Of a DNA stretch of 64,000 nucleotides, positions 4,775 to 58,128 are shown piece after piece. The notes beneath the pieces were generated by a model. That model was given only the letters and a program-made list of their open reading frames with translations, was not told the origin of the DNA and did no database searches. The stretch lies in the NCBI GenBank assembly GCA_020241865.1, contig GCA_020241865.1_4709.1; one strand, given 5' to 3'. The translations under genes and the position numbers were made by a program. The number at the start of each line of letters is the position of its first letter. The first letter of the stretch is position 1. Source of the DNA: a phage.

Positions 4775-4807
4775 ACGGATGTAAAAAAAAAAATAACACA
4801 TAGTTAA

Positions 4808-4842
4808 CCTTCTCCCCAACCCGATGAGGGAAGGGGAGAAGG
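4808..4842. terminator. GC-rich stem-loop CCTTCTCCCC/GGGGAGAAGG (family member) between convergent genes
   Basis: Perfect 10-bp inverted repeat around CCC-GATGA-GGG inner hairpin; A11 tract 4783-4793 just upstream. Confidence 0.6.
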
Positions 4843-11211: not shown

Positions 11212-11236
11212 TCACCTAGGTAATGTAAGCGTCAAA
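11212..11236 (-). promoter_or_regulatory. conserved promoter-like motif copy 3 (minus strand TACATTACCTAGGTGA)
   Basis: Shares CACCTAGGTAATGTA core with motifs at 19381-19416 and 57405-57437; lies in 330-bp intergenic region upstream of gene 9626-11062. Confidence 0.4.
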
Positions 11237-11270
11237 TTTTTTCTATTCGCAACAATAAACGGCATAGAAA

Positions 11271-11300
11271 CCTCCCCCAACCCTTACGGGCTGAGGGAGG
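11271..11300 (-). terminator. GC-rich stem-loop, family member in inverted orientation (CCTCCC...GGGAGG around CCC-TTAC-GGG)
   Basis: Inverted repeat read from sequence; downstream of stop of gene 11400-13622 on minus strand. Confidence 0.5.
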
Positions 11301-11399
11301 CTGACTTATGTATCACGGTGCCGGATGAATGTCCGGTGCAATGAAACCATCCGCAACGTTGTCGTCAAGAATATCGTCCAACGAAGCAGCTACGGTAGT

Positions 11400-13622
11400 T
11401 CAGTTAGTCTGAACAGGCAGCTTGATGTTTTCAGTGTAGACCTTACGCAGGTTCACAACGTTAATCAGACCCAGCAGCGGGCAGTTGTTAACGAAGCGGC
11501 AGCGCGGCTGAACCATGGTTTCTTTAGAAACCTGACCGTTACGGGTAACCTGAGCAACAGATACCAGTTCCGGTACATACAGGAACATACCGAAGGTCAG
11601 CGGATCCGGAGAACCCTGGATACCACGAGACAGGGTCACGAAGATCTTATCGCGCAGCATGACGTTCGGGTTATCTACAACCACGAAGTTGAAGCTTACA
11701 CCAACGGTGCGGAAATCACCATCGGTCTGCAGGAACTGCGGGATGTAGTTGTCAGTTGCTACTACGCAACGCGGTTTCTCATCAGCGTTGGAAGACAGCA
11801 GCTGCAGAGCTGGCTGATAACCAGACTCGGAGTACATGCGGTATGCCATCTCACGAATCACGTTCATGATCGCAGCAGACACTTCAGCACGACGTTCTGC
11901 AGTGGTGGTACCCTGAACAGATTTCTCCAGGTCCAGATTGATTTCTTCGAACCACGGACGGATCAGGTAACGACCGAAACCTTCGATCTGGATGTCGCCG
12001 AACTGACGGAAGCGAGAGGTCGCAACCGCTTTCAGTGCGTCTTTGTAGCTGAACAGTTTCTCAACCATCAGGTTGTCGAAACGTGCGTTAGCAGCTTGGA
12101 TCAGAACGTCCAGGTCAGCAGCGTTTTCTTCCCAATCCAGCGGACGAGGAATGGAGAACGGAGCCAGCAGGCCGATTGCGTAACGTTCTTGCTTCATGTT
12201 GAAGTCAAGGTGCTTACCGCGCTCACGACGGTTGCTGTTGTTACGGCGGATACGCAGTTCGTAACCAACCAGTTTGAAGCTCAGGTCTTCAGCCAGTTGT
12301 TTGAACTCTTCGCTCTTACGCGGTTGTTCGATGTTGTCCTGATCAACCAGGCGATACAGTTCAGCGTTAGCGCCGTTAACACGCAGACCGGCTTTCTCTA
12401 CGTTGGAAGAACCGTAAACTTCGATCGCCAGCTGAGCAGCAGATTTCGCATCGATGATGTCCTGCAGCGCTTCAGCTTTCGCGCCTTTAACGTCTTTGGT
12501 GTTCTCATCAACGAAGATGGAGTGGGTGTCGAACGCCAGGGTCATTTTGCGGAAGTCGCCTTCCAGGGATTTCTGGAAACCGTTGGTGATCAGACCAGAT
12601 ACGTCGAACGGTACGTAAGAGGTTTTGCTGTGCTTGGTAGATTTGATTTCCACCAGGATTTTGGTCAGCGTGATCTGGGCGTCCAGCGCGTCGGTGTTGT
12701 CGCTGTAACCGTTAGCCAGGATGCTATCGTCTTCAGCAATACCGATCATGTCGATCAGTTTATCAACAGCCAGGTAAGACGTTTTGTAAGTTACGCCTTT
12801 AATTTCGATGTCGCGCGGAGCAACGATAGCTTTGTCAACGAAGTACTGTGCGTTAGCATCGTCAGCACGATAGATCGGATGCAGATCGGTCACGTCGTTG
12901 GACAGAACGTCGTTGTACATGAACGCATCCAGCAGCGGACGACGTACCCAATCAGCCGGAGTACCGTCAGCGTTACGACGCAGGTGGTTGAACACCAGCG
13001 GACGACGGAAAGATACGTCGTAACCGATCTGGTTCGGAGCCAGAACGATGGTGTTGTACAGTTCGTTACCCATGCGGCTCAGACGAGAAGCCTTCACGTT
13101 GAACACAACGGAGTACGGCATCATGTCACGCAGTTCTTTCTGGTCGTAGGACAGCTGAACCAGTTCTTCAGATTCGCAACCGCAGGAATCAGCAGCCATC
13201 ATGACGAAGTTAGAGCTGTCAACTTCACGGCCAGACGGAGTGGTGCTGATGTTCATGGAACGTGCTTGTTTAGCATATTCTACCGGGTTACCATGAGCCA
13301 GCATGATCAGTGCTGCTGCACGAGCCTGCTGTGCGTTCATGGTGAACAGCTGTTCTTCAATACGCTGCTTCTCTTCCGGAGTGGTGGTTTCGAAGCCCAG
13401 CATGGACAGAACCGGTTCTTCGGCTTTACGGATGTCGCTGCTGAAGCTCTTAACATCCATTTCGTTAACCAGTTTGTCCATGGATTTGAAATCAACCTTA
13501 GAAGCAGATTCCATAGACAGGAAGGTGTTCTCCAGACCTTTGTCTGCTGGTTTGCTACCATTAGCGGTCAGGAACTGGCGAGTGGCCGCGACCTGTTGGC
13601 TAAGAAGGGTTTTATCATTCAT
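11400..13622 (-). CDS. highly expressed virion protein, candidate major capsid protein (740 aa)
   Basis: ORF track; ATG 13622 with AAAGGA upstream; strong codon bias (CTG, CGT, GGT, GAA dominate) and a 766-aa stop-free antisense frame; size fits jumbo-phage capsid proteins; no motif-level proof. Confidence 0.85.
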   Translation of the reverse strand: MNDKTLLSQQVAATRQFLTANGSKPADKGLENTFLSMESASKVDFKSMDKLVNEMDVKSFSSDIRKAEEPVLSMLGFETTTPEEKQRIEEQLFTMNAQQARAAALIMLAHGNPVEYAKQARSMNISTTPSGREVDSSNFVMMAADSCGCESEELVQLSYDQKELRDMMPYSVVFNVKASRLSRMGNELYNTIVLAPNQIGYDVSFRRPLVFNHLRRNADGTPADWVRRPLLDAFMYNDVLSNDVTDLHPIYRADDANAQYFVDKAIVAPRDIEIKGVTYKTSYLAVDKLIDMIGIAEDDSILANGYSDNTDALDAQITLTKILVEIKSTKHSKTSYVPFDVSGLITNGFQKSLEGDFRKMTLAFDTHSIFVDENTKDVKGAKAEALQDIIDAKSAAQLAIEVYGSSNVEKAGLRVNGANAELYRLVDQDNIEQPRKSEEFKQLAEDLSFKLVGYELRIRRNNSNRRERGKHLDFNMKQERYAIGLLAPFSIPRPLDWEENAADLDVLIQAANARFDNLMVEKLFSYKDALKAVATSRFRQFGDIQIEGFGRYLIRPWFEEINLDLEKSVQGTTTAERRAEVSAAIMNVIREMAYRMYSESGYQPALQLLSSNADEKPRCVVATDNYIPQFLQTDGDFRTVGVSFNFVVVDNPNVMLRDKIFVTLSRGIQGSPDPLTFGMFLYVPELVSVAQVTRNGQVSKETMVQPRCRFVNNCPLLGLINVVNLRKVYTENIKLPVQTN

Positions 13623-13771: not shown

Positions 13772-14392
13772 TCATAAACGACGCAGGCGATAATGGATGG
13801 AACGATTGGTGCAATATGAACGGAACAGCGGCAATTGCGCAACTTCCGCAAGACTCATATTAATTCGCAGGTGTTCAATAACGGCGCTGTAGTTATCAGC
13901 AATACGATCGCTCAATAACTCTTCTGCCAATAAAGGAAGACAATCGACAACAATCGCGATCACATCCTCATTAACATAACGCACCCGAACACTCAACGGA
14001 CGTTTGTCTGGGCTGTAAGTTGGATCCGCCAAACGACGTTCAATATCACGCGGATAGCTCGTCAGTAAATGGTAATAACCATTGTCATAACGATTGATGT
14101 ACTCACACAGCACATCAACATTCTTCTCTGGCGGCAAACCTGTTTCGTCATAGTGATACGCAAACATACCACCAAGCAGGTTGTTAAGATGAACCGCAGG
14201 GTTCGTTTGTTCGTGTTCTTTCGTGATGAAGAAAGGCACGTTCTGGGCTGCGAAATAAAAACCTACATCATTGGGCGATAGTATGCCGAAAAGACTTTTA
14301 GGGTCTAATAACACCTGTAAGTCATCACGCGCATTTCGAATAATCGCGTGTTCTACCCAATTCGGAACGACGAGATATCGGAGTTCCTTCAT
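13772..14392 (-). CDS. hypothetical protein (206 aa)
   Basis: ORF track; ATG 14392 with AGAGG upstream; divergent from 14432 gene. Confidence 0.75.
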   Translation of the reverse strand: MKELRYLVVPNWVEHAIIRNARDDLQVLLDPKSLFGILSPNDVGFYFAAQNVPFFITKEHEQTNPAVHLNNLLGGMFAYHYDETGLPPEKNVDVLCEYINRYDNGYYHLLTSYPRDIERRLADPTYSPDKRPLSVRVRYVNEDVIAIVVDCLPLLAEELLSDRIADNYSAVIEHLRINMSLAEVAQLPLFRSYCTNRSIHYRLRRL

Positions 14393-14431
14393 TATGATTA
14401 CCTCTTTGCAAGTATCGAAAGGATTGAGTCG

Positions 14432-16042
14432 ATGGACCCAAAACAGATAGCCATTAAGATTATTACGTTACTGTTTCGTAATGCACAATTGAACCATCCC
14501 GATCCCAGTACGATCGAACATGTTAAATCCGTCTTAGATAAAGTCGAACCCCCGAAAAACCATCTCGCTACAGACGTAGATAGAGAGGTTTTCAACAACC
14601 TGATGAATACCATTCATTGGATGTTGGAACAACCATTATCGGAACCTTTCGATAAACAACAGTTGTTACAAAGGATACGTTTGGATTGCCTTGAACAAAG
14701 CAATCTTTACGAGATTCTTGCCGACGGACTGTACGATATCGAAGACGACGCTCATATCAGTAAGGTCTGTTCACTCTATTACAACGAATTACGTAATCTG
14801 ATTACCCGTCGTCGTGTTTTCGAAACCTTTAGAAACACGTACATGGATATCAGTAACGGGCGACTTGGGGATAAAGAATTTTTCGATGCAATGGCGAATC
14901 TGAAATTATCGCTAGACAGTATCGAAATGGATACCGAAAATCCCGAAGAGATGTCGTGTATGATTGACGGCTTTATCGCTGACAGCGAAGACGATATCGA
15001 GAAAGTCGAACGTATGTTCGTCAAAGCGATGGAACGTAACAGTCCTGAAGGTGGATTTGTAACCGGCTGGCAAGGCTTTAATAAAATGTTGGGGTCGGTC
15101 GGTGTTTTACGTCGCGGTACCTTAGGACTGATTGGTGCAATGCAGCACCGGAACAAGTCAGGCGTGTTGTTAAAACTGTTCACACATCTGGCATTGTACA
15201 ACAAACCCCATTTCTTTTTCCCGGAGCGAGCAAAGAAAGCATTACTGATTCATTTGTCGACAGAAAACGAAGTGGAAGAAAACACGCTTCAGATATACAA
15301 GAACATGCGAGAACAGGAAACAGGCGAATATGTCGATATTCGTAAGATTGACCCTCGCGAGGCATCACGTTATGTGTTGAAGGTGTTCAACGATGCGGGT
15401 TTCTCTGTTTGTATGCGTCGTGTTGATGGGATGAGTTATAAACAACTCGCTAATCTCATCGACCATTTCGAACGCATGGGTTATGAAGTCATGGCGTTGT
15501 TCATTGACTATCTGAAAATGTTCTCATCGGAAGGGCTGGATAGAAATGGACCGACCGGCGCATGGCTCCAAGAACTCTTCAACAAAGTCCGTAACCTCTG
15601 CAGTGTTAAACGTATTTTAGGCATGACCGTACACCAGCTGTCATCCGATGCGAAGATGCGTGCACGTGATGGCAACGATGAAGAGTTTGTTGACCAAGTC
15701 GCAGGTTTAAGTTACTGGGATGGTTGTAAAGGGATTGACCGTGAGATTGACCTTGAAGTGATTGTTGATATCGTTAAGGAACCGGGCAAACGTCAAAGCT
15801 GGCAAGTCTTTGCATTAGGGAAAGACCGTCAACCGGATAACGGTTCAACGAAACCTGAAGACAAACACTTCGCAATGCCATTCCAAACCATCGGGATGCT
15901 TCCTGATGATTACGGTAAGAAAGCAGTGTATTGCCGCAAGGTTGGCGGACAACCTGTCTCCGAGGGAGGTAAAGGTCCGTGGAACAAGTTCGATGAAAAC
16001 GCAGCACCGAGTAATGAATTACAATTTGATTTAGAATTTTAA
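14432..16042 (+). CDS. DnaB-family helicase homolog candidate with atypical P-loop (537 aa)
   Basis: Track start 14348 would overlap the divergent gene; ATG 14432 has AAAGGA 8 nt upstream. Motifs by eye: GAMQHRNKSG (Walker A with Asn in place of the second Gly), KPHFFFPERAKKALLIHLS, LFIDYLKM (Walker B/H2-like), VHQLSSD (H3-like), in DnaB-like order and spacing. Confidence 0.75.
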   Translation: MDPKQIAIKIITLLFRNAQLNHPDPSTIEHVKSVLDKVEPPKNHLATDVDREVFNNLMNTIHWMLEQPLSEPFDKQQLLQRIRLDCLEQSNLYEILADGLYDIEDDAHISKVCSLYYNELRNLITRRRVFETFRNTYMDISNGRLGDKEFFDAMANLKLSLDSIEMDTENPEEMSCMIDGFIADSEDDIEKVERMFVKAMERNSPEGGFVTGWQGFNKMLGSVGVLRRGTLGLIGAMQHRNKSGVLLKLFTHLALYNKPHFFFPERAKKALLIHLSTENEVEENTLQIYKNMREQETGEYVDIRKIDPREASRYVLKVFNDAGFSVCMRRVDGMSYKQLANLIDHFERMGYEVMALFIDYLKMFSSEGLDRNGPTGAWLQELFNKVRNLCSVKRILGMTVHQLSSDAKMRARDGNDEEFVDQVAGLSYWDGCKGIDREIDLEVIVDIVKEPGKRQSWQVFALGKDRQPDNGSTKPEDKHFAMPFQTIGMLPDDYGKKAVYCRKVGGQPVSEGGKGPWNKFDENAAPSNELQFDLEF

Positions 16043-16063
16043 ACGCAAAAAAAAAAAGATTGT

Positions 16064-16112
16064 GCGGTTCCCTCCTCCAACCCGTAAGGGAAGGAGGAGG
16101 GGTTATGACCGC
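16064..16112. terminator. GC-rich stem-loop CCCTCCTCC-AA-CCC-GTAA-GGG-AA-GGAGGAGGG with extended flanking stem GCGGT/ACCGC, between convergent genes
   Basis: Perfect inverted repeat; A11 tract 16047-16057 gives a U-tract after the hairpin for minus-strand transcripts. Confidence 0.65.
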
Positions 16113-19380: not shown

Positions 19381-19416
19381 GTTATCACCTAGGTAATATA
19401 GTCGCGAAATAAACTG
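19381..19416 (-). promoter_or_regulatory. conserved promoter-like motif copy 1 (minus strand CAGTTTATTTCGCGACTATATTACCTAGGTGATAAC)
   Basis: Near-identical 33-nt copy at 57405-57437; contains TATATTAC; about 50 nt upstream of ATG 19329 and just downstream of stem-loop 19434-19465; adjacent inverted repeat TGATAACA-N8-TGTTATCA at 19364-19387. Confidence 0.5.
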
Positions 19417-19433: not shown

Positions 19434-19465
19434 CCCTCTCCCAACCCGTAAGGGAAGGGAGAGGG
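19434..19465 (-). terminator. GC-rich stem-loop CCCTCTCCC-AA-CCC-GTAA-GGG-AA-GGGAGAGGG (family member)
   Basis: Perfect inverted repeat starting 5 nt after stop of gene 19470-20837. Confidence 0.65.
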
Positions 19466-24686: not shown

Positions 24687-24731
24687 CGCAGATTCCTGTT
24701 TGAAAGATAAGATATCACATGATGGTCGACA

Positions 24732-24768
24732 GCATAAAGCCCACCCCGAAGGGCGGGCTGTTTATGCG
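24732..24768 (-). terminator. stem-loop GCATAAAGCCCACCCC-GAA-GGGCGGGCTGTTTATGC (looser family relative)
   Basis: Imperfect inverted repeat whose CATAAA/TTTATG flanks also pair; between stop 24775 and start 24686. Confidence 0.5.
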
Positions 24769-30665: not shown

Positions 30666-30697
30666 CCTTCCTCCAACCCGTAAGGGAAGGAGGAAGG
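30666..30697 (-). terminator. GC-rich stem-loop CCTTCCTCC-AA-CCC-GTAA-GGG-AA-GGAGGAAGG (family member)
   Basis: Perfect inverted repeat between stop 30708 and start 30559; arms carry a compensatory T/A change relative to other copies. Confidence 0.65.
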
Positions 30698-33371: not shown

Positions 33372-33403
33372 CCCTCTCCCAACCCGTAAGGGAAGGGAGA
33401 GGG
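33372..33403 (-). terminator. GC-rich stem-loop CCCTCTCCC-AA-CCC-GTAA-GGG-AA-GGGAGAGGG (family member)
   Basis: Perfect inverted repeat between stop 33426 and start 33323. Confidence 0.65.
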
Positions 33404-41625: not shown

Positions 41626-41646
41626 AACAAAATAGCATGAGCATAA

Positions 41647-41678
41647 CCCTCCTCCAACCCGTCAGGGAAGGAGGAGGG
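41647..41678. terminator. GC-rich stem-loop CCCTCCTCC-AA-CCC-GTCA-GGG-AA-GGAGGAGGG between convergent genes
   Basis: Perfect inverted repeat between stop 41625 (plus) and stop 41688 (minus). Confidence 0.65.
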
Positions 41679-41687
41679 AATATGCTG

Positions 41688-44600
41688 TTATCTTACGTTA
41701 TTGCTGTTCTGCTGTTCGCTGAACCAACCATACACCTTGAGATCGGTACCGTATTTCAACGCGATATACGCATTCAGCGCAGCACAGAACAAAGACGCGA
41801 ATGCCCATATCAGCGAAGGATCAACATCTTCCGTTACCATTGGGAGAGTATTATCCGGTTCCCATGATGGAGAACTGTCCATGAACGTTGCGTACCATCC
41901 CCGCCGTTGTTCTTCGGTGGTAAAGTCGCTATGGGGTTCCAATGCTTCTTTTGCCAGACGTCGATATTCGAACATATGCGTTGCTAAAGCCGATGAGTTA
42001 CCAGATTCGCCTTCATAGTTCGGATCCACCGCATAACAGAGTTCTGTGGAATCTAACAAAGCAACCGCCTGTGTGATGTTGTCGGCAGTGCCTGCACCAT
42101 AGAGCTCGATAGACCGCGAAAGCTTTTCACAGAACGCATTTAACGCGGAAGGATTGGACACCTGAAGGTCAAGGCCTAATGTCCACGGATAGTTACTGAA
42201 TACGCCCGTAAACCGCGGCATAACACCCAACAGATGTTGTCCGATTACAGCACGGTTATAAACAGCCCGGTTATAGACTTGAAACGCAGCCTCCAAAGCT
42301 TGGTTATAATGACGACGAAGTTCGTCACGCGAGTTGCGGAATCTGTTTGCCGCAAGACTTGTGGCTGCGACGCTACAAACATCGTAATTGGTGGACGAGA
42401 GCACAGTTTCGTTAAGATCGAACGATTCCTGTTTCAACGATCCGCTAACCGCTGCTGCTTCGCTGTTTGCTTTATCGACAACAGTACTCAAAGCGTTGAT
42501 GTAACGTTTAGCTCGGACTTCCAGCCATTGTGCGATACCGAGAATATCCACCGCGGCTTTAGCAAGATCGCGTGCATTCACGATTTCGTTCTTCAACGCC
42601 CCTAAACCTTTATTTTCAGGCGTTGAGGCTTGTTGACGAATCATACTGTTCAACATGGTAAGCAGATTATCCAACTCATGTCCGCTGACCTTGTTGCGCG
42701 CATCGGTAATCGGCCCTTGCAGGAATTTACGACAACCGTCATTATACCGAATCAGTTTATCCACGTCGATGGATTCGTTCGTGGTTTCCTTGAACTGATT
42801 CTTTAATTCTTCACGGTAGTCGTGTATCTCGCTTGTAAGATTATCAACGGTGATACCATTGTGACCAAGAAGAACTTTACTGAAGTTGCCCTTCTCGAAC
42901 GCCAGTGCGATGTCTTCACGAATCTTAGCCAGTTTATCCTGATCTAATTCACGACCGTTTGACAGTTCTTTCACTTCAGCACTGATTATTGCTGCAACCG
43001 TTCCAAGGTTATCGGTAACCCCTTTGAACGTGCTTGACCAAACACTTCCCGCTTCAGCGTATTTTGCGATGGTCTGGATACCGACGCTATGTAACGACGC
43101 TAAACGTTTCTTCGTACCTTCGGTAAGCAATGCATCTTTAGCTCGCGTAAGTTGACTGTTATTGGCTTCCGCTTGCTGGATGGCCGCTTTCGCATTCCCG
43201 TTACGCCAGCTCTTAACCAACCAATCGACCAAACGTTTCAGGATGTTGATGGTATATTCCATCGTACGTCGTAACGTTTCCCATGCGCTTTCAGCGGTAT
43301 AGATCCCACCAACAGTGTACCCTTCCATCTTCAGCGCTTTGGTATCGGTTTGACGTGCCAACCATTCTACCGTCGCAGAACAAACGTTTACGAACGCCTC
43401 CAGGTAGTTGTAATAGGCCTCTGTTGCGGAGGTTTCGTTGAGCTTCGAATGCAGATAAAACTGTTCGTATAGCTCGTCGTCATCACCGAAGGCGTCGTAG
43501 TTCCACAGTTCGGTATCGCAGCCGGTACCACAGAAGACATCCGCCGTTGTAAACTCCTTAAGTGCTTTCGTTGCGTCGTTGGTCAGGAATTTACCTGTCT
43601 CAAGTACGTCGTCAACATTAAGTCTCGGGAGTTCGTCAGTAATTGGGTTTTCCAGCATCAACGTATTGAAGAACACGCTGTACTTGTATCCAAGCCATTT
43701 TGGATAACTGTTTTCAGATATCGTAGACGCCGGTTTGATTTTCTTGGCTTCAGCCAACGTGTCTTCTGCAACCTGATATTGGTTTTCCCCAGCTTTGATA
43801 CGTCGTAATGCTTTTTCTTCCAACTGTTTGAGTTTGGTGTGCCGTGCTTGAGCTGGAGCCTCAACCAGTTTTTGTACCGACCGCATGGCGGAAATCGCTT
43901 CTTTCAATGTGGTGATCGGCATACGAACTTTACCGTCATCGAAACTCAGCGCGCGAGCAATACGTCGACTTACAACAGGTTCGGTATGGATGTTTCTTTC
44001 TACCCACGATTTGTTTGCGTAGGTTTGCGTGATTTGCTGCTGGATCTTTTCAAGATAGCCCCAGCTTTTGGATGCTTTGCCGTCCAAAAGCGGATTAGGT
44101 CCTTTCTTATCAAAAAGCTTTTTGATAGGATCAAAGAAACCTTCTTGCACGAGATCGATACGGGTGTAACCATCAGCTGCTTCGATTTCTTCTTGGGTTT
44201 TATCCCAGAAGTCGTCGCTCTTTGCAGCAACCGCTGTATCTTTAATGTCCAGGATGATCTGACCCACCGTTTGCGCAAACAGCAAGGCCGCACGTACCGA
44301 TTGTGCGAACATCCGCTGATATTTGATTCGAACGCATTGCATCTGGGTTAGCAGATTCAGTTGCGCGATCCCATCCAAGGTGCTATCTTGAGCAAGTCCT
44401 TCAGCCTTAGCGATAACCTGTTTTACACGTTCAGCGACATCAACGTATTGCTGGCATACATCCCGCAGAATACGTGCTGCGAAGACCCCGGTACCGATAT
44501 AGTTCAACAGGTCTTTTAATGACCATTCAGACGGACAATCGGCTGGTGCGGTAGGGAGTAAGCAACCATCACCGTCCATGAATCGCTCTAATGCACTAAT

Positions 44601-50137: not shown

Positions 50138-51889
50138 ATGAGCGAACAAGAACGAAAACCTAAGAAGAAACTGCTCGGTATTCAATGTCGACACATCAGC
50201 TATAACGAAGCGAACGATGGCAGCAAGAACGACCTCATGATCGCAAAAGAGATCATGTTCTTCGATGATAATACGCAAGCGACGAACCTTCGCTTCTTCG
50301 AGAATTACAAACGTCCGTTTTGGGTGACGGTAGAGAGTAAACGTAAGAACAAATATAAAAAGGAAAGCGAGAAGCTCTCGCATGTGCGTCGCTACGATGT
50401 CCGCCAAAGCGAACTGGTTGAAAAGATCAGCTCGGTACTTTATAAAAGACGTGCTGACGATAACACCCGTTTACAGCAGCTTGCACGGAGTCCATACCTC
50501 TATGGAACGGACGTTAGCGCCAGCTGTTATTTAAAAACCCAGTACAACACAAAATGGCCGGAATACGTCGATAAATTACCCGCTTCCATTGCCTGTTTCG
50601 ATATCGAAACCGACGTTGTCCACGGACACGGTAAGATCGTTTGTATGTCTATTACAATGGGATACAATGCGATACTTTGCTATACCAAGGACTTCGTTGG
50701 TCATATTCCGAATGCCATTGAGAAAACCCATGAGAAGATTCGATATTACCTGGCCGAACGTCTGAATACCAAAGAAGATCCCCACGCATTCGAAAAATAT
50801 CAGTACGATGTTCGAATCGTAGAAAGCCCGGCACAAGCGGTCATCCAATGCATGCAGAAGGTTCACGAATGGCAGCCGGATTATCTCCTTGGCTGGAATA
50901 TCGCGTTCGATATTCCGCGCATGCTCCAGGCACTGAACGAGGAAGGGTATCGTCCCGAGGATGTTTTCTCCGATCCCCGTATACCACCTAAATATCGTAT
51001 TGCTCGCTGGGTACCACCGAAGACCGACAAGGTATCTGCTTCAGGTCGTAAAACCAACCTTACCCTTGAGCAAACCTGGCCGATGTTTTATACGATGGCT
51101 ACGTATCAGGTTATGGATGCGATGTGTGGCTATAAGTTCGTTCGTTTAGGAAGACCGGATGAAGGACGCTATTCACTCGATGCGGTGTTAGAGCGAAATA
51201 AATGCCATACGAAATTAAAAGCTATTCCTGGTACAGAGGGGTTCACGGAGCTTGCCTGGCACGAAGAGATGCAAACGAACCATCAAATCGACTACGGCGT
51301 ATATAACCTTTGGGATAACCAGGGTATTGAGGCGTTGGACCAGAAAACAAAAGACTATTCGATGACCATCCCTATCCGTTTAGCGGCGTCGGATTTGAAA
51401 GATTTCAGTTCTAACCCTAAACGTATCTGCGATAAACTTTTCTTCGTTTATCTTAACCGTGGGGAAGTCATGGGATGTACCGCTGACGACATGACCCAGG
51501 AAGAAGATAAGTGGGTTATCTCACGAGCTGGACATATCGTCACATTACCATGCGATCTCATGGCTGACAACGGCATTCATCTCTTCTGGGATATGCCGAA
51601 CCTGAGAAGTTATATCCGTCTATTCGTTGCAGACCTTGACATTAGCAGTTCATACCCGAATGGGCAGATCCTGTTGAATCTATCCAGAGCGTGTGTTTTT
51701 CGCGAGCTCTCACGCATTGAGGGCGTCTCTGACTATCAATTCAGGAAGTTAGGTATCAACTTTATTACCGGAGGTAAAACGAACGCTGTAGACTTCTGTA
51801 GAATCGTTTATAAAGCACCATCGATGTTTGAACTTTTAGAACATTTCGATGCAACGCGTCCAAAAGAGGAAGCGCGGACCATCGAATGA
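50138..51889 (+). CDS. family-B DNA polymerase N-terminal fragment (3'-5' exonuclease domain plus motif A), 583 aa
   Basis: Motifs by eye in canonical order: Exo I CFDIETD (about residue 155), Exo II WNIAFDIP (about 258), Exo III Y-x3-D (YQVMD about 323 or YSLDAV about 345), motif-A-like DLDISSSYPNG (about 499); no motif B (K-x3-NS-x-YG) or motif C (YGDTDS) before stop. Confidence 0.8.
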   Translation: MSEQERKPKKKLLGIQCRHISYNEANDGSKNDLMIAKEIMFFDDNTQATNLRFFENYKRPFWVTVESKRKNKYKKESEKLSHVRRYDVRQSELVEKISSVLYKRRADDNTRLQQLARSPYLYGTDVSASCYLKTQYNTKWPEYVDKLPASIACFDIETDVVHGHGKIVCMSITMGYNAILCYTKDFVGHIPNAIEKTHEKIRYYLAERLNTKEDPHAFEKYQYDVRIVESPAQAVIQCMQKVHEWQPDYLLGWNIAFDIPRMLQALNEEGYRPEDVFSDPRIPPKYRIARWVPPKTDKVSASGRKTNLTLEQTWPMFYTMATYQVMDAMCGYKFVRLGRPDEGRYSLDAVLERNKCHTKLKAIPGTEGFTELAWHEEMQTNHQIDYGVYNLWDNQGIEALDQKTKDYSMTIPIRLAASDLKDFSSNPKRICDKLFFVYLNRGEVMGCTADDMTQEEDKWVISRAGHIVTLPCDLMADNGIHLFWDMPNLRSYIRLFVADLDISSSYPNGQILLNLSRACVFRELSRIEGVSDYQFRKLGINFITGGKTNAVDFCRIVYKAPSMFELLEHFDATRPKEEARTIE

Positions 51890-51936
51890 TTCAAGTAGGT
51901 TGATCCTCGCTTAACAAAAAAGAAAACACATGCGAA

Positions 51937-51969
51937 GCCCCTCCCCCTGGCGGAAGCCGGAGGGAGGGG
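51937..51969. terminator. GC-rich stem-loop CCCCTCCC...GGGAGGGG between convergent genes
   Basis: Imperfect inverted repeat between stop 51889 (plus) and stop 51976 (minus). Confidence 0.55.
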
Positions 51970-51975
51970 TGAGGT

Positions 51976-52461
51976 TTATGCGCGTTCGTTACCAACCGTT
52001 ACTTTGTAGTCAGCGTCGGTTAAGAAAATAGACAGGAATCCATGTTCTTTGCAAATCTTACTAAGGATGTCAGCAATGATTTCGTTGATCATCGGCTTGT
52101 TTGCAAGGGCATAGATGTACCCGGGTGTAAAAGAAAGTGCGTGATTGATCATAGGCTCATGAGAAGCCAAGATAAGGATCACGTGATGCTTCCCATCGTC
52201 GGTAACGACCGCTTGCGTAGACACGAAGAAATCAGTGAAGCAGCAGCGATCACAGGCTTTAGGTATATACAAGTCACCCAGAGCTTCGTCACGTGCTTTT
52301 ACGTGTGTTTCAGGGGTGATGCTGCTAAGTTGATCTTCAGCGAGATCCAAGACATCCTCAATCGTTTTAAGAATAGCGTTGCGGAAATCCTCACGGTAGA
52401 ATGGGATGATATCACGATCGTTCATGTAATCGCCGGATTCGATAGTAAAGTTGATGTTCAT
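51976..52461 (-). CDS. small hypothetical protein (161 aa), small-gene island
   Basis: ORF track; ATG 52461 with AGGAG upstream. Confidence 0.75.
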   Translation of the reverse strand: MNINFTIESGDYMNDRDIIPFYREDFRNAILKTIEDVLDLAEDQLSSITPETHVKARDEALGDLYIPKACDRCCFTDFFVSTQAVVTDDGKHHVILILASHEPMINHALSFTPGYIYALANKPMINEIIADILSKICKEHGFLSIFLTDADYKVTVGNERA

Positions 52462-52531
52462 TGAATGCTCCTAGTGGTTATGTCGATTGATCGATGTATT
52501 GATTTATGTTTGAAGGTGTTGTTCACCTTCG

Positions 52532-52996
52532 TTAGATATCGTCATCCGTGGTGCCGTAGGACATATGCTGAATTAATTTTCTCGGCTCGATGAAAATACG
52601 ACATGTGATAAACACATCGGGATCGTATTGCTCCACGCAACGTCCGAAGGTTTGTTTTGCGGCTTGGCGCATCGATGTTATTTCCTGATCGTTCATCGCA
52701 TTATCGAATTCGATGTTGATCGCGATTTTATCGGGAAATAAATAGATAAAGTAATCGCCGCTGATACCACCATCATCAAAGTGACGTTCATTGTAGCACT
52801 GGACGAGCTTACCTTCACGTTCTTTCTGATACCACCCAAGGATACTATTAAGACCTCTGTCCACGCATTCGAATGCTTGAGTAATAACATCCTCAACGAC
52901 GGATGCAGGCGTGGGACCATTGAATAGACGATCTAAGCGCTTTTTCATCGATTTGGTTTTCTCGTTCATGATTTCTTTTCCTGTTATAATCGGCAT
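52532..52996 (-). CDS. small hypothetical protein (154 aa), small-gene island
   Basis: ORF track; ATG 52996 lies 4 nt after the 3' arm of stem-loop 53001-53030, which supplies the only SD-like sequence (GGGGAAGGG). Confidence 0.75.
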   Translation of the reverse strand: MPIITGKEIMNEKTKSMKKRLDRLFNGPTPASVVEDVITQAFECVDRGLNSILGWYQKEREGKLVQCYNERHFDDGGISGDYFIYLFPDKIAINIEFDNAMNDQEITSMRQAAKQTFGRCVEQYDPDVFITCRIFIEPRKLIQHMSYGTTDDDI

Positions 52997-53000
52997 ACAA

Positions 53001-53030
53001 CCCTTCCCCGGCCTGATGGCTAGGGAAGGG
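53001..53030 (-). terminator. GC-rich stem-loop CCCTTCCC...GGGAAGGG (family relative) overlapping the ribosome-binding site of gene 52532-52996
   Basis: Inverted repeat between stop 53045 and start 52996. Confidence 0.55.
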
Positions 53031-53044
53031 GCTATGCTACGTTG

Positions 53045-53443
53045 TTATGCTTCGCAATCAGCTGAAGGCGTCGCGCCTTTCTTACCAGCGATACGCCAAA
53101 TCCGACACGCTGGGTAATGGTTAACCTCTAGAGAGCAAGGAATGTTATATTTCTCTTCCAGCGCATAAAGACATTTCGTTAGCTGCTCCAGCGCGTTCTC
53201 GTCGTGTCGTAACGCGTGGTGGCCTAATCGATGTTGGTCGTTCTTTATATACGCCTCGAAGAGAACATGTTGGCGATGTACGCTGACGTTTACAGCCTCG
53301 AGTATAGCTTGGTCGAGCATACGACTAAAGCACATCAACGAGTCAGATACGTTTTCTCGCTTAACCAGATCGATCATGGCGGGAATATACGAATGGTCGA
53401 TGTTATCGATGACCGCTTTAGCGACGGAATCAGCAACGTTCAT
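53045..53443 (-). CDS. small hypothetical protein (132 aa), tandem paralog of 53481-53876
   Basis: ORF track; shared motifs KAVxDNIDH, MIDxxK, EEKYNIP-SLEVN. Confidence 0.8.
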   Translation of the reverse strand: MNVADSVAKAVIDNIDHSYIPAMIDLVKRENVSDSLMCFSRMLDQAILEAVNVSVHRQHVLFEAYIKNDQHRLGHHALRHDENALEQLTKCLYALEEKYNIPCSLEVNHYPACRIWRIAGKKGATPSADCEA

Positions 53444-53480
53444 CTTTTTTAATCCCTAGTTTGTTATTGATCACGTATAT

Positions 53481-53876
53481 TTACTCTTTGACGTCAGTTG
53501 TCGTTTCGACATGCTTCTCACTACTGACGTACCAGAGCAGGTACGCTGGGAAAAGATTGACCTCTAAGCTAAATGGGATATTGTATTTCTCTTCCATTTT
53601 ACAGAGATGTTCTTTAAGTAAATTTCTCGCGTCTCTGTCACCACGAACAGAGTGCCAGTCTAGTTCTTTGTTCTCCTTTACCAGGACCTCTACGATGATA
53701 CGTTGCTCGTGAACCTCGGTTTTCACAGTGAAAAGTAAATCGCTGCTATCCAAACGGGTAAAACGAATGTATGAACCAGGTGTTTTTTCTTGTTTAATAA
53801 TATCGATCATGGTAGAAATGCGCGGATGATCGATGTTGTCGTTAACAGCTTTAACGATGGATTCTACAATGCTCAT
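53481..53876 (-). CDS. small hypothetical protein (131 aa), tandem paralog of 53045-53443
   Basis: ORF track; ATG 53876 with AAGGA upstream. Confidence 0.8.
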   Translation of the reverse strand: MSIVESIVKAVNDNIDHPRISTMIDIIKQEKTPGSYIRFTRLDSSDLLFTVKTEVHEQRIIVEVLVKENKELDWHSVRGDRDARNLLKEHLCKMEEKYNIPFSLEVNLFPAYLLWYVSSEKHVETTTDVKE

Positions 53877-53908
53877 TTTTTATCCTTAATGTTATCGATT
53901 TGGAAATA

Positions 53909-54676
53909 TTACTTATTTTTGCTTTCTTTATAGACAGTTGTTACCCACGATGGGAAAGCCGGATGGAAACAGAGCGTGAACGTAACTGTCGTATCGTATT
54001 TAAACGCACAGTTCACTAACCGGGTATCTAACGTTTTCCTTAATCCGTCATCATCGTTATCGATGATGGTCATATCTCTTAATATCCCAAGCACGTTAAC
54101 GCCATCGGGTGTCTGGGTTACGACAAGTCGTCGTAATGGCCCGCATGTATAGTCACGTACAAATCCTTTCTTCGGGTCCGATACCCTGTTTAACGCATCG
54201 TGATTTTTGATGAATTCATCGGCGATACAATAGGTTTGCTCCCTTGCTTTATCGGGATCGTATTCTGCTAATAGTTCCTTCGTGTCGAATGTTATCGCGT
54301 TATTAGCATTCGATTCAGAAGGGAAACATAAAACTAAACGAACAGGGTATTCATATTGATCTGTTCTCGTTTCGAAAGCATTAGCTAAACACGGCTTGTA
54401 TGCCTTTGCGTCGACATTGTCCAAACACGGATGCAATAATGCGTGAATAACGGCACCATCGTCAGTTAAACCGAATTCCAGAAATTGTGTTTCATCGACA
54501 TCCGTGACGGTTTTCTGAAGATACGCTTTACCGTTAACGATATCGGTATCCCACATATCGTCGTTTAACGATTCTTCAAACTTATCGAATATATGGTTTA
54601 CGAAATTGATGAGTTCATCAATACGACACTGTTGGTTGAATTCGATTAATCGTTGAACTTTATCTCTGATAGACAT
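53909..54676 (-). CDS. hypothetical protein (255 aa), small-gene island
   Basis: ORF track; ATG 54676 with AAGGAG upstream. Confidence 0.8.
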   Translation of the reverse strand: MSIRDKVQRLIEFNQQCRIDELINFVNHIFDKFEESLNDDMWDTDIVNGKAYLQKTVTDVDETQFLEFGLTDDGAVIHALLHPCLDNVDAKAYKPCLANAFETRTDQYEYPVRLVLCFPSESNANNAITFDTKELLAEYDPDKAREQTYCIADEFIKNHDALNRVSDPKKGFVRDYTCGPLRRLVVTQTPDGVNVLGILRDMTIIDNDDDGLRKTLDTRLVNCAFKYDTTVTFTLCFHPAFPSWVTTVYKESKNK

Positions 54677-54678
54677 GA

Positions 54679-55143
54679 TTACTCCTTAGTTCCTTCTTCG
54701 TTGGACGTATATTCCACATAGTGGAATTCACGGCCGTCGATAAACTTGAGTGCTACTGTAATAGGGAAATCACACGGCATAGCGGATTTCGTAAATGCGT
54801 TATCAGCAACATCAGATAACCGACGTATGGTATTCTCCCCTTTTGCTATGAATGGGAATTTAATGTTAATAAGGATACGGTGTTTGTAAATAGTAAAGAC
54901 GACAGTGCTGTCGAAATGTACCCCAGTTAAAGTCATTGTTGGGATACGTTTTACAACGGAGAAATGTGTCCCGTCAATATCGCTACTTCCCACTGACCAT
55001 TCATCGGAATTGCGTAGACTTTTCTTGAGGATATCAACGCTTTGCGTGACCACCTCAGCAACTTGTACGACGTACGTGTCTTTATGCATGTCGAAAAGTT
55101 CGTTGACGTTAGATTTGAATGAATAAACCGTTGCCATTATCAT
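54679..55143 (-). CDS. small hypothetical protein (154 aa), small-gene island
   Basis: ORF track; ATG 55143 overlaps upstream stop (ATGA); alternative ATG 55137 has better SD spacing. Confidence 0.75.
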   Translation of the reverse strand: MIMATVYSFKSNVNELFDMHKDTYVVQVAEVVTQSVDILKKSLRNSDEWSVGSSDIDGTHFSVVKRIPTMTLTGVHFDSTVVFTIYKHRILINIKFPFIAKGENTIRRLSDVADNAFTKSAMPCDFPITVALKFIDGREFHYVEYTSNEEGTKE

Positions 55144-55598
55144 ACCTCTTTTTTCATCTTCATCGGAACAGCGAGTGCTGCACTCGCTGTTCCATTATCC
55201 GGCTCATATTCCAATGTAACGAGATTGCAGCCGTCCGATAATTCATAATCGATCGCTAGGGGGAACGAGATACCGTGCGACTTTATGCATTTACCAAATG
55301 TCTCGTTGGCTGTATACATTAGAAGTTGCTTTGCGGCAAGCCCGTTTACGCTGAAAGGTAATTGTGCTGTCGCAGCGATACGATTATTGTAAACTCTGAT
55401 ATCGGTGATATCTACAATCGTAGCATTGCCGTGTTGTGTTGATGGAACGGATAGGTTGTAGAAGTAAGGTTCGGAGTCGGAATCGGGCTCGTTAAATAAT
55501 TCCCAGCACCCGTCCTCCTGCAATCTTACTTCGAGTATTTCAAAGCTTTTAATTATCGATTCTACCAGCTGCTCACCGTAAGAATCCCATGTCGTCAT
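55140..55598 (-). CDS. small hypothetical protein (152 aa), small-gene island
   Basis: ORF track; ATG 55598. Confidence 0.75.
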   Translation of the reverse strand: MTTWDSYGEQLVESIIKSFEILEVRLQEDGCWELFNEPDSDSEPYFYNLSVPSTQHGNATIVDITDIRVYNNRIAATAQLPFSVNGLAAKQLLMYTANETFGKCIKSHGISFPLAIDYELSDGCNLVTLEYEPDNGTASAALAVPMKMKKEV

Positions 55599-55669
55599 TT
55601 TTTAACACCTTCGACACCTTTTAACCGATACGTGTCCCATCTAACAAGGGACACGATATCGTTGATTAA

Positions 55670-56164
55670 TTACTCTTCTGTGTTTTCATTGTCAGGATCG
55701 TAGTGGAATTCGAACAGCCCTGAACCGTCGTGTCCGTTGATTGTTAGTATAACGGGCATATCGAATCCTCGGACACGCGAATGAAAACATTGTGCTAATT
55801 TTAGTTTGGCGTATGCCGCTACTTCATTGACAGCAATACACGATTCACCTGTTATACTCAGTATAACGTCGATACTAACAATGTTGTCGTGCAACGCAAA
55901 ACGCCAGCGATCGATACGATTATTATCTTTATCGGTTGTCTCGTTTACGAGATAGACTTTATCGTCAACCGACAAAGCGGGACTCCAGCAACGATCGTTT
56001 ATTAAATTCGCCTGGAGTTTTAGTATCGTCTGATCGATAATATCCCAACACGTAACCAGCGTGGTGTCAGGCACTGAGTAGAGAAGGGCGTGCACTTTAT
56101 CCTTTATTTTAAGTGCTTCCGCAGGACGTCCGCAAATACCATGCATTTCGACTTTCTTATTCAT
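55670..56164 (-). CDS. small hypothetical protein (about 164 aa), small-gene island
   Basis: Track start 56170 is GTG; ATG at 56164. Confidence 0.7.
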   Translation of the reverse strand: MNKKVEMHGICGRPAEALKIKDKVHALLYSVPDTTLVTCWDIIDQTILKLQANLINDRCWSPALSVDDKVYLVNETTDKDNNRIDRWRFALHDNIVSIDVILSITGESCIAVNEVAAYAKLKLAQCFHSRVRGFDMPVILTINGHDGSGLFEFHYDPDNENTEE

Positions 56165-56208
56165 ATTCACTTCTTTCTTAATCTAAATGTTAGTTGGGGG
56201 TGGGATGC

Positions 56209-56811
56209 TTACATGCTTTCTAGCATATTGACGATCATGGAACCCATACCGAAACTCGGTCTCTCACCGATATACTCAGCAAGCTGGCGATGGACGTCTT
56301 TTGGATTTCCTTCTTCACCGTCAGCATCGATGTAGACTGAAAAAGAAACCGAATCGGAATCCACGCTGATAACCAGACGACGTTCATTGCGTTCCTTGAG
56401 CGTGTCGACGATAGATGCTTTCAGTACCGGGATCGCATTCATCGCGTGCAAGATATCTCCATCGGGTTTCGGCAGATCGATCTTTTCTTTCAGGTCGATA
56501 TTGATGTTGGTTACAATTGGGTTGAGGTCGACCTTGACGTAATCGTTAGGGTACATGCGAATAATCGCACGATCGATATCTGAACCGTAAAAGTCAACAC
56601 GTGGCTTTAACACTTCTTTGTTTGGATCCATGTTTTCATCCATACCCGCCTGCAAGAAACGTTCTACGTTATCCAGTTCACGATAAACTAACGCTTCGAT
56701 TTCTTTCAGATAGTTGGCTGCGGTTTCATGTTCTTTACGCAGCTCGTCTTTAAGGAGCTGTACGGTGGTTTCACTGGAACGAATGCTGTTCGCGAATTGG
56801 GTAATTGACAT
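56209..56811 (-). CDS. hypothetical protein (about 200 aa), small-gene island
   Basis: Track start 56841 is TTG; ATG 56811 has AAGGA 8 nt upstream. Confidence 0.75.
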   Translation of the reverse strand: MSITQFANSIRSSETTVQLLKDELRKEHETAANYLKEIEALVYRELDNVERFLQAGMDENMDPNKEVLKPRVDFYGSDIDRAIIRMYPNDYVKVDLNPIVTNINIDLKEKIDLPKPDGDILHAMNAIPVLKASIVDTLKERNERRLVISVDSDSVSFSVYIDADGEEGNPKDVHRQLAEYIGERPSFGMGSMIVNMLESM

Positions 56812-56858
56812 ATCGAATTCCTTAAATTCTCTTGAGTTCAATTAATGATGAAAAGCTG

Positions 56859-56887
56859 TAAAAAAAAAAGGTGGGGCGAACCCCACC
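56859..56887 (-). terminator. intrinsic terminator: stem GGTGGGG-CGAA-CCCCACC followed by T10 on minus strand
   Basis: Perfect 7-bp stem with 4-nt loop and A10 tract on plus strand (U-tract on minus transcript), 26 nt after stop of gene 56913-57338. Confidence 0.75.
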
Positions 56888-56912
56888 AAAACGTCAGACA
56901 CACGCGGGAAAA

Positions 56913-57338
56913 TTAATTCAGTGATGCATATAAGGCATAACGACTGTAGATCTCAACCGCCGGTCCGTTATGCGTTAACAGACCGTCTCGGCTGTAATAC
57001 TGGAAAAATGAATAACGTTTGTCGAAGTGATAAACAAAAGCAATGTCTTTGCCGTCAAAACCTGTGATGCGTGGTCTGTTTTTATCTAGCAATGCTTTGA
57101 CTTTTAACAGTGTTGCCGCACGTGCTTTAACGTTAGGGATCAAGCCATCACAATCGATATAAACAGTGTAACCTGTTTCAGATGTTGCGACGGTCGTATT
57201 GCGATTGACGCGGAAGATTTTTGTTTCGTATGTACTATCTTCAAGAATTGGGTTTTGTTTTTCGTATTTTCGTTTACGCAGAAATTCTACAACGGTGATA
57301 TAGTTAGCGGTAATATGCCCGGTTATAGCTTGTAACAT
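56913..57338 (-). CDS. small hypothetical protein (141 aa) downstream of promoter-like motif copy 2
   Basis: ORF track; ATG 57338 with AAAGGA upstream. Confidence 0.8.
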   Translation of the reverse strand: MLQAITGHITANYITVVEFLRKRKYEKQNPILEDSTYETKIFRVNRNTTVATSETGYTVYIDCDGLIPNVKARAATLLKVKALLDKNRPRITGFDGKDIAFVYHFDKRYSFFQYYSRDGLLTHNGPAVEIYSRYALYASLN

Positions 57339-57404
57339 CTTGACATCCTTTTATATTGGATTGGTTGCAATTGTCTTAAATAGATGATAAGATATTTTGC
57401 TCTT

Positions 57405-57437
57405 ATCACTAAGGTAATGTAGTCGCGAAATAAACTG
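57405..57437 (-). promoter_or_regulatory. conserved promoter-like motif copy 2 (minus strand CAGTTTATTTCGCGACTACATTACCTTAGTGAT)
   Basis: Near-identical to 19381-19416; adjacent inverted repeat TGATAAGA-N8-TCTTATCA at 57385-57408; about 67 nt upstream of ATG 57338. Confidence 0.5.
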
Positions 57438-57467
57438 CGTTAACACGAAATAAAAAACAGCATAGAA

Positions 57468-57507
57468 CCCTCCTCCCACATCCTTCAAGAGGACGGTGGG
57501 AAGAGGG
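57468..57507 (-). terminator. GC-rich stem-loop CCCTCCTCCC...GGGAAGAGGG (family member, enlarged loop)
   Basis: Inverted repeat with one mismatch, 6 nt after stop of gene 57513-57914. Confidence 0.55.
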
Positions 57508-57512
57508 AGAGA

Positions 57513-57914
57513 TTAAATGTCGTGGACGGCAATGCCGTTTAACCAGCAATACAGCTTAACGCGACAGGAATACCGCTTCGTTGCGGCAACCATTTCATCG
57601 CGTAAACGCTGGTATATTTCATCCTGGTGTTCACGATCAATGGGGTAATCAGCCCAACATTCGATCATGACGTCACCATTCGTCAGAATCGTCGTACGCA
57701 TCCTGTCCTGGATACGGCGGTCTTTCCCGGCATTAGGGAAATACATTCCTTCAGTACGAATAAGGTCGCCGCAAGGCATGACTAACCATTCGTTCGTTTT
57801 GCCGGTATTCTTATAATCCATTACAGCTTGCATTGCGGTGTCAACGCTAAAAGAAACATAATTCCAAACGGATGTCCAACGATAGATTGCGGGTTGTTCG
57901 AGTGTTTCGTTCAT
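57513..57914 (-). CDS. small hypothetical protein (133 aa)
   Basis: ORF track; ATG 57914 with AGGAAAAG upstream. Confidence 0.8.
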   Translation of the reverse strand: MNETLEQPAIYRWTSVWNYVSFSVDTAMQAVMDYKNTGKTNEWLVMPCGDLIRTEGMYFPNAGKDRRIQDRMRTTILTNGDVMIECWADYPIDREHQDEIYQRLRDEMVAATKRYSCRVKLYCWLNGIAVHDI

Positions 57915-57968
57915 GGAGTGCTTTTCCTATTTTTATTTTCTGCACAGGATAAATTCAACGGCATAAAG

Positions 57969-58000
57969 CCCTTCCCTGCCCTTATATGGGGCGGGAAGAG
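57969..58000 (-). terminator. GC-rich stem-loop CCCTTCCC...GGGAAGAG (family relative) with CATAAA/TTTATG flanks
   Basis: Imperfect inverted repeat in 214-bp spacer between stop 58129 and start 57914. Confidence 0.5.
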
Positions 58001-58128
58001 TTTATGACCGCAATGAGAATCTCTCACGACAAGCTCACGACGATTATCGCATCACCCCGCGAGTGAGGGAGATCAGGATCACCTCCTACGTCGTAACGAC
58101 AGTAATCCCGTTAACGTCGCCTTAGGCA

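Follow-up and report, generated by a model that had tools for sequence, protein, structure and literature searches.

The closest described counterparts of the element reported here are the transcription terminators of phage phiKZ, for which the motif 5'-BCCYCCCCHWWDGGGRRGGBYTTATKYYGT-3', a stem-loop followed by TTAT, was derived from 61 terminator regions that had been recovered by ONT-cappable-seq and predicted to be intrinsic by ARNold (Putzeys et al. 2024, PMC10914365). The terminators of phage 201phi2-1 feature a strongly similar motif (termed 'motif A'), motif-bearing terminators of both phages caused termination in vivo in two-reporter assays, and regulatory elements were found to hold their positions relative to homologous genes (PMC11512511). 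TATG, a sequence that neither of these two terminator-motif papers mentions (PMC10914365, PMC11512511), is known from initiation: it is the late-promoter consensus of phiKZ and is necessary for initiation by the phiKZ nvRNAP, with the G serving as the start site (+1), and substitution at any of its positions strongly lowers transcription, while TATG alone is insufficient for a promoter, which also calls for determinants further downstream (PMC4666361). The beta-like subunit binds TATG on the non-template strand (PMC12809450). In nucleus-forming phages, moreover, transcription is spatially uncoupled from translation (PMC12908238).

The window analysed here is the whole stretch of 64,000 nucleotides of the phage contig GCA_020241865.1_4709.1 (assembly GCA_020241865.1). 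Positions 51900-53053 are 91% identical to Escherichia phage vB_EcoM_Goslar and the ORF at 11400-13622(-) encodes a PhiKZ-type major capsid protein (PF25620, E = 5e-218); by this similarity the window is that of a nucleus-forming jumbo phage like Goslar, which is itself a Goslarvirus. The stem-loop of interest is located on the minus strand at 53001-53030 within a co-directional gene array, with seven genes upstream of it as far as a canonical terminator (56887-56870) and two downstream of it as far as another hairpin (51938-51969). Pfam searches returned no match for either of the two genes flanking the hairpin. The features of the locus are:

53045-53443, minus strand: upstream gene, 132 aa, no known family
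53032-53037, minus strand: 5' flank GCATAG, one half of the symmetrical CATA..hairpin..TATG arrangement of the family described below
53001-53030, minus strand: hairpin, with 5' arm CCCTTCCC+T at 53030-53022 and 3' arm G+GGGAAGGG at 53009-53001
52990-53000, minus strand: 3' tail TTGTATGCCGA, with TATG at 52997-52994; counterpart of the phiKZ YTTATKYYGT tail
52975-52984, minus strand: Shine-Dalgarno (SD) region ACAGGAAAAG, with AGGA at 52982-52979, 9 nt before an ATG; likely the real SD
52532-52969, minus strand: downstream gene with its corrected start, 145 aa (MNEKTKSMKK...), homologue of Goslar_00071

Read on the minus strand from 53030 to 53001, the sequence folds into a stem-loop whose 9-bp stem is separated by a 1x1 mismatch from a 3-bp apical helix that carries a tetraloop, in the order GCATAG-CCCTTCCC-T-A-GCC-ATCA-GGC-C-G-GGGAAGGG-TTGT-ATG. 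The main stem pairs CCCTTCCC (53030-53023) with GGGAAGGG (53008-53001) and is extended by a T53022.G53009 wobble, followed by the A53021xC53010 mismatch and by the apical helix GCC/GGC (53020-53018 with 53013-53011) that closes the loop ATCA (53017-53014). RNAfold predicted -28.4 kcal/mol for 66 nt (z = -4.66), with an equally good fold in 1 of 200 shuffles, and the pattern CCCTTCCC-N3-30-GGGAAGGG occurred once in the window versus 0.00 expected occurrences. The hairpin begins 14 nt past the TAA stop codon (53047-53045) of gene 53045-53443, and 4 nt (TTGT) past the stem end the longest ORF, 52532-52996, opens with an ATG (52996-52994). Coordinates, pairing, RNAfold and the arm-pattern count all agree with the initial annotation that there is a hairpin at this place and that it ends 4 nt before an ATG. 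When folded per strand, the hairpin is equally stable on both (-24.4 versus -25.3 kcal/mol), so that the functional strand, and RNA versus DNA, is not readable from this copy alone; an argument from G.U strand asymmetry was discarded for this copy because wobble and mismatch merely trade places on the other strand. The 5' flank GCATAG (53032-53037, minus strand) mirrors the 3' TATGC, and the outer GCAUA/UAUGC helix that RNAfold drew from the window sequence was rejected, as it is not retained among relatives. An Rfam search of 51800-58100 at E <= 1 gave no match at the hairpin.

For comparison with relatives we aligned the intergenic region of 14 loci, taken from the DNA of diverse homologues of the downstream gene; a viral-contig search yielded Goslar and one other genome, and the wider set was obtained through exact-protein look-ups. 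The hairpin is present in 14/14 of these loci and nearly invariant. Ten distinct orthologous sequences share 10 of 13 invariant stem pairs, 93% of the cells being paired, and the few changes keep or improve pairing: in L009 the wobble and the mismatch become U-A and A-U, and in L010 an extra G lengthens the stem. The stem varies so little that these orthologues gave no covariation signal, the shuffles equalling the observed values. Among the 14 relatives the tail keeps the form TAT(G/A)YYGA, and hairpin, tail, leader and downstream gene are linked across them while the upstream gene differs, with three different upstream gene ends adjoining the orthologous hairpin. Megablast-level similarity to Goslar ends just upstream of the hairpin. 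We conclude that the hairpin is under selection.

On the upstream side, 53045-53443 and 53481-53876 are paralogues with a common EEKYNIP.SLEVN motif. Some of the relatives L008 and L011-L014 possess a single called gene of such size directly upstream of the orthologous hairpin, and in these the sequence adjoining the hairpin resembles the 3' end of 53481-53876, a pattern that indicates gene gain or loss by recombination at the hairpin boundary. On the downstream side, a smaller hairpin at 52505-52531(-), CGAAGGTG-AACAA-CACCTTC and then AAACATAAATC, directly follows the stop codon (52532) of the downstream gene; it has neither the pyrimidine and purine arms nor the TATG tail of the family. Past the end of the array, the DNA polymerase-region ORF 50138-51889(+) (compared with L001, region 477-3256, and with loci L005-L013) differs among relatives, its length being 583 aa in the window, 499 aa in Goslar and, with DUF7941, 760 aa in L005 and in L008. 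In Goslar, L006, L007 and L011-L013 an HNH/NUMOD1 homing-endonuclease gene lies between this ORF and the array; the window is without it and has 87 nt and a family hairpin in its place.

The initial annotation had taken the ATG at 52996 as the start of the downstream gene and the purine-rich 3' arm of the hairpin as the only SD-like sequence available to it. A second in-frame ATG is located at 52969-52967, separated from the first by 27 nt, and the two behave differently among relatives. The first is ATA in 8/14 related loci, TATG being kept in 6/14; a 1-nt deletion (L002 and L004) or a 4-nt insertion (L005-L007) falls between the two ATGs; and each of the five substitutions relative to Goslar in the intervening 27 nt changes an amino acid (5/5). 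The second ATG, on the other hand, is invariant in 14/14 loci together with AGGAA(A/C)AG 9 nt upstream. The Goslar orthologue Goslar_00071 is annotated from this second ATG, and 65 of 68 database homologues begin there as well (144-151 aa, with one truncated entry of 114 aa; MN/MT/MS-x-K), while one database entry (P0031, 158 aa) is called from the equivalent of the first. The SD AGGAAAAG is situated outside the hairpin, about 20 nt downstream of the stem, and in a 131-nt fold the hairpin persists while both the MFE and the centroid structure leave the SD region unpaired; from the stem end to the start codon at 52969 there are 32 nt. The ATA in relatives and the frame-breaking indels thus place the start of the downstream gene at 52969, not 52996, and the purine arm is not its SD. 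The alignment shows the 27 nt between the ATGs to be non-coding, and ATG 52996 belongs to a recurrent hairpin tail and is not a start codon. The gene start at ATG 52996, the purine arm as sole SD-like sequence and the gating of translation by that arm were therefore not borne out by the alignment, as the indels break the frame to the conserved start at 52969 and a conserved, unpaired AGGAA(A/C)AG precedes that start.

A sliding fold scan of the whole window revealed that the hairpin is one of many. At least 12 hairpins pair a pyrimidine 5' arm with a purine 3' arm between CATA...TATG flanks; in the very stable members (-24 to -30 kcal/mol) the 5' arm consists of pyrimidines only and the 3' arm of purines only. 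Copies that stand out from the scan are:

4808-4842: very stable member
11265-11308: very stable member
16070-16101: very stable member
19434-19465: very stable member
30666-30697: very stable member
33372-33403, minus strand: very stable member, representative of the core form, CCCTCTCCC-TT-CCC-TTAC-GGG-TT-GGGAGAGGG then TTCTATGCCG
41647-41678: very stable member
51938-51969, minus strand: very stable member and the nearest one, between the convergent genes 51976-52461(-) and 50138-51889(+); closes the gene array
57467-57510: very stable member
57959-58002 (57954-58002 in the model search below), minus strand: looser copy whose tail GGGCTTTATGCCGT matches the phiKZ tail motif without a mismatch
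24731-24766: shorter GC-rich hairpin with the family tail, arms not strictly pyrimidine/purine

The commonest form is Y9-TT-CCC-TTAC-GGG-TT-R9, of which 51938-51969 (a long Y/R stem with apical GGC/GCC) and 53001-53030 represent a variant in which one wobble and a 1x1 mismatch are combined with a 3-bp GC helix and a tetraloop. Perfect Y-arm/R-arm hairpins of at least 7 bp number eight in the window versus 0.075 expected from Markov-1 simulations. All family members are intergenic, mostly 5-35 nt past a stop codon or between convergent genes. Across six members we observed compensatory C-G to U-A exchanges in 6 of 12 stem pairs with 100% pairing, a signal that 0 of 500 shuffles matched (one of the six sequences had lost one loop base and its outermost pair to manual trimming). 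Moreover, 11265-11308 folds to -30.0 kcal/mol on the minus strand versus -18.5 kcal/mol on the plus strand owing to G.U pairs, and the better sense-strand fold of such members points to RNA.

As CATA precedes the family hairpins and TATG follows them, either strand reads hairpin and then TATG. A TATG within 11 nt 3' of the stem was found in 12 of 16 flanks versus a background of 2% (P about 6e-18), the tails being TTCTATGCCG, TTTCTATGCCGT, TTTATGGCGT and CTTTATGCCGT, and TTGTATGCCGA at the 53001-53030 hairpin. The G of TATG is positioned 5-9 nt (mostly 6-7) past the last stem pair, in the window and in phiKZ alike, and the tail ATG at other copies soon meets a stop, as in MPLRFIF* after 33368.

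Several other sequence features accompany the family. At 16069-16112, at 41641-41684(-) and at other copies, the purine arms (GGAGGAGGG, GGAGGAAGG) and an ATG 3-7 nt further on mimic SD-start modules; this mimicry, present at every family copy, can mislead gene callers and readers beyond 53001-53030. Minus-strand runs of T11 (A11 in plus-strand reading) at 4776-4790 and 16046-16058 lie about 15 nt from the family hairpins 4808-4842 and 16070-16101 at two convergent-gene junctions, and on the plus strand these A11 runs directly follow the stops of 1865-4774 and 14348-16042. The sequence TTTCGCGACTAYATTACCT is present in two exact copies, 19391-19409(-) and 57412-57430(-), versus 0.03 expected; each of the two sits some 35-45 nt past a family hairpin and ahead of a gene on the minus strand, and a weaker copy lies near 11216-11236(-). 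The sequence resembles the AT-rich TATATTAC and TTACC cores of phiKZ early and middle promoters and is a candidate phage promoter in a terminator-then-promoter layout.

We then compared the hairpin with the terminators of phiKZ. Scanning 200 kb of phiKZ with the motif at no more than 3 mismatches gave 18 instances, many with a CATA 5' flank. The arms of instance 108011 (GCCTTCCC-TCAG-GGGAAGGC-TTTATGTCGT) are essentially those of the 53001-53030 hairpin, and the instance after the capsid gene reads cataGGCCCTCCC-TTCG-GGGAGGGC-TTTATGTTGT. At our locus, CCCTTCCC/GGGAAGGG are arms of the CCYCCCC/GGGRRGG type of phiKZ terminators, the tail AGGGTTGTATGCCGA (52990-53004, minus strand) deviates from RRGGBYTTATKYYGT by 2 mismatches, and the hairpin is intergenic and close behind a stop codon, that of 53045-53443. 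The 4-nt loop (HWWD) is the exception: it is replaced by an apical region of 14 nt, TA-GCC-ATCA-GGC-CG, that contains its own 3-bp helix. Other copies in the window also have an apical extension, which argues that the insert is a lineage variant of the motif. Allowing up to 2 mismatches, the tail motif matched ten family-type hairpin 3' ends, including that of 53001-53030 and, exactly, 57958-57972(-). The total over the whole window (14 versus 9.9 expected) is no enrichment by itself, and the significance lies in the placement of the matches at hairpin ends.

A covariance model (R1) that was built from the 18 phiKZ instances only and run unfiltered over the window (128 kb searched) ranked the 53001-53030 hairpin (52986-53038, minus strand) fourth with 14.7 bits (E = 0.21), a modest score owing to the 14-nt apical insert in place of a tetraloop. 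About 11 of the 15 matches with E < 10 fell on family hairpins, among them:

57954-58002, minus strand: best match, 23.5 bits, E = 6e-4
24725-24766, minus strand: match with E = 4e-3
41639-41692, plus strand: match with E = 0.14

Hairpin 11265-11308(-) is located about 97 nt past the stop of the major capsid gene and a phiKZ motif instance (120602(+) in L015) about 91 nt past gp120. The terminator position is thus shared by a phage of E. coli and one of Pseudomonas. The fallback of the initial annotation, a terminator for the upstream gene, is thus the part that gains from the comparison, since arms, 3' tail and post-stop position fit the phiKZ-type terminator family. A standard terminator scan did not list 53001-53030, whose tail TTGTATGC has 4 T in 8 nt versus the at least 5 required. 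The orthologous hairpin is unannotated in the Goslar record, though a canonical T-tract terminator nearby is annotated. In the papers examined, those with Goslar RNA data gave no information on this locus, and transcript-end data for Goslar-like phages were not found.

On the basis of its structure, its conservation, the corrected start of the downstream gene and its agreement with the family in arm composition, tail sequence and location, we favor with a probability of roughly 0.7 the reading that 53001-53030 is a phiKZ-type factor-independent terminator or attenuator after 53045-53443, and that the downstream gene is expressed from 52969 with its own SD. Termination itself we infer for this locus from the mapped 3' ends and the reporter assays in phiKZ and 201phi2-1. 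The phage multisubunit RNA polymerase would transcribe the minus strand out of 53045-53443, the nascent RNA would fold its C/U-rich and G/A-rich arms into the hairpin and the transcript would end, fully or partly, a few nucleotides later inside the conserved UUGUAUG tail. Partial termination would make the element an attenuator within the co-directional array, and the 3'-end hairpin may also protect the upstream message. With only 32 nt from the stem to the next start, the downstream gene needs read-through or initiation in the tail; ribosomes would use the unstructured SD AGGAAAAG to read it from 52969, and the hairpin would not gate its translation. The separation of transcription from translation in nucleus-forming phages makes unfolding by coupling unavailable and fits a reliance on strong intrinsic signals.

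A more speculative proposal, against which we would put the odds, is that the TATG of the tail might be the nvRNAP initiator, used either as a pause/release signal that replaces the U-tract or as a site of immediate re-initiation. The G would be placed roughly at the expected site of catalysis at the moment of hairpin formation, and the register would be that of promoters, with TAT at -3 to -1 and G at +1 in the pocket of the beta-like subunit. Re-initiation would couple the end of one unit to the start of the next, and the symmetrical CATA..TATG flanks would let each element work in both directions.

Other explanations account for parts of these data. If the purine arm were indeed the SD for a start at 52996, translation would depend on unfolding by coupling, a helicase or temperature; the ATG is in frame in the window with GGGAAGGG 4 nt upstream and P0031 is called from its equivalent, but ATA in 8/14 relatives, the 1-nt deletion and the 4-nt insertion between the ATGs, the amino-acid changes caused by 5/5 substitutions and the invariant second ATG with AGGAA(A/C)AG, at which 65/68 homologues begin, all argue against it. 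The succession of purine arm, a few nucleotides and ATG also recurs at family hairpins where the frame stops early (MPLRFIF* after 33368), and coupling-based unfolding is unavailable in nucleus-forming phages (PMC12908238), so that we hold occlusion of an SD to be highly improbable. An element that combines a terminator with a promoter, the tail TATG acting as nvRNAP initiator with restart at G52994 and a 25-nt leader, is another proposal. It would explain why family hairpins show so strong an association with TATG on either strand and why the unit of hairpin, tail, leader and gene is intact while the upstream gene varies among relatives, it is in keeping with the requirement for TATG and the role of its G at phiKZ nvRNAP start sites (PMC4666361) and with the binding of non-template TATG by the beta-like subunit (PMC12809450), and the 32 nt upstream of the start codon offer no other fitting motif of promoter type. 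However, 8/14 relatives have TATA and not TATG, when substitutions in TATG strongly reduce transcription in phiKZ; TATG alone is insufficient for promoter activity (PMC4666361); the known late promoter P119L is without an upstream hairpin; and conservation runs past TATG (TATGYYGT), as in the terminator motif. We therefore consider a promoter in the tail unlikely.

The very stable stem at a gene boundary, together with the missing U-tract at 53001-53030, could alternatively reflect an RNA processing or stability element that blocks 3' exonucleases or marks an endonuclease cut and thereby gives the messages differing half-lives, and the mapped 3' ends of phiKZ alone cannot separate termination from trimming to a hairpin. 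The phiKZ and 201phi2-1 motif elements nevertheless terminated in the two-reporter assays (PMC11512511), and a block to exonucleases needs no conserved sequence-specific tail, which makes such a role quite improbable. A site for RNase III was also considered and rejected, the 9+3 bp stem being too short for a classical site. An element acting at the level of DNA, whether a palindromic recombination hotspot or module boundary or a protein-binding palindrome, would agree with the end of near-level homology to Goslar just upstream of the hairpin, with the three upstream gene ends that adjoin the same hairpin in relatives and with a palindrome that is symmetrical on both strands. Yet the arms differ in sequence within the family and keep pairing, evidence in favor of a folded nucleic acid and against a protein site of defined sequence; some members fold far better on the sense strand (11265-11308, -30.0 versus -18.5 kcal/mol); and any recombination at repeated terminators would be a by-product that does not compete with termination as a function. 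We give this last possibility hardly any credence.

Read as a terminator or attenuator of the phiKZ type, the hairpin would be a routine transcription-unit boundary and not a translational switch. The phiKZ terminator design would then reach the Goslar-like phages of E. coli and Salmonella in an elaborated form (Y arm, R arm and TATG tail) that was missed by standard terminator finders and by the Goslar annotation, and that could be used to delimit transcription units in the Chimalliviridae, phages that are unable to rely on transcription-translation coupling. The possible link between terminator tail and TATG, which would join terminators to the initiator of the phage polymerase, is in our opinion the only part worth follow-up.

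A comparison with known regulatory hairpins sets the element apart from most of them. The PeSL (promoter-early stem-loop) cassettes of T4-type phages, reportedly described by Arbiol and colleagues in 2010, are similar in that an intergenic stem-loop is repeated next to transcription signals, small variable genes and mosaic boundaries, but sequence, polymerase system and element order all differ from those of the 53001-53030 family. SD-sequestering operators and RNA thermometers (ROSE, fourU) likewise bury a purine SD-like strand in a stem beside an AUG; at 53001-53030, by contrast, that AUG is not the conserved start, the real SD lies unpaired beyond the stem, and the stem, at about -24 kcal/mol, greatly exceeds in stability those of thermometers, which melt near 37-42 C. 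With canonical intrinsic terminators the element shares a stable GC-rich hairpin past a stop codon and a presumed release a few nucleotides after the stem, whereas it is without a U-tract (UUGUAUGC) and has a sequence-specific tail instead. The canonical copy in the window, 56887-56870, reads GGTGGGG..CCCCACC followed by T10, a polarity opposite to that of 53001-53030, where the pyrimidines come first.

The terminators of phiKZ and 201phi2-1 are much closer. Those of phiKZ, a Pseudomonas phage, have mapped 3' ends; the phage type in the window has E. coli or Salmonella as host, and its element is predicted from sequence. The loop of phiKZ terminators is a simple one of 4 nt, in place of which 53001-53030 has a 14-nt insert with an extra 3-bp helix and a tetraloop; most copies in the window differ from phiKZ in having a TT/TT internal loop and CCC-TTAC-GGG, and the tail TTGTATGCCGA is 2 mismatches away from the phiKZ motif. 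Common to all of them are a C- or pyrimidine-rich 5' arm and a G- or purine-rich 3' arm, a TTAT(G)YYG-type tail right after the stem, CATA as 5' flank, a location shortly past stop codons, and many copies per genome, some of them bidirectional between convergent genes. By these features the hairpin at 53001-53030 is an unannotated member of the known phiKZ-like terminator hairpins, in a lineage-specific form.
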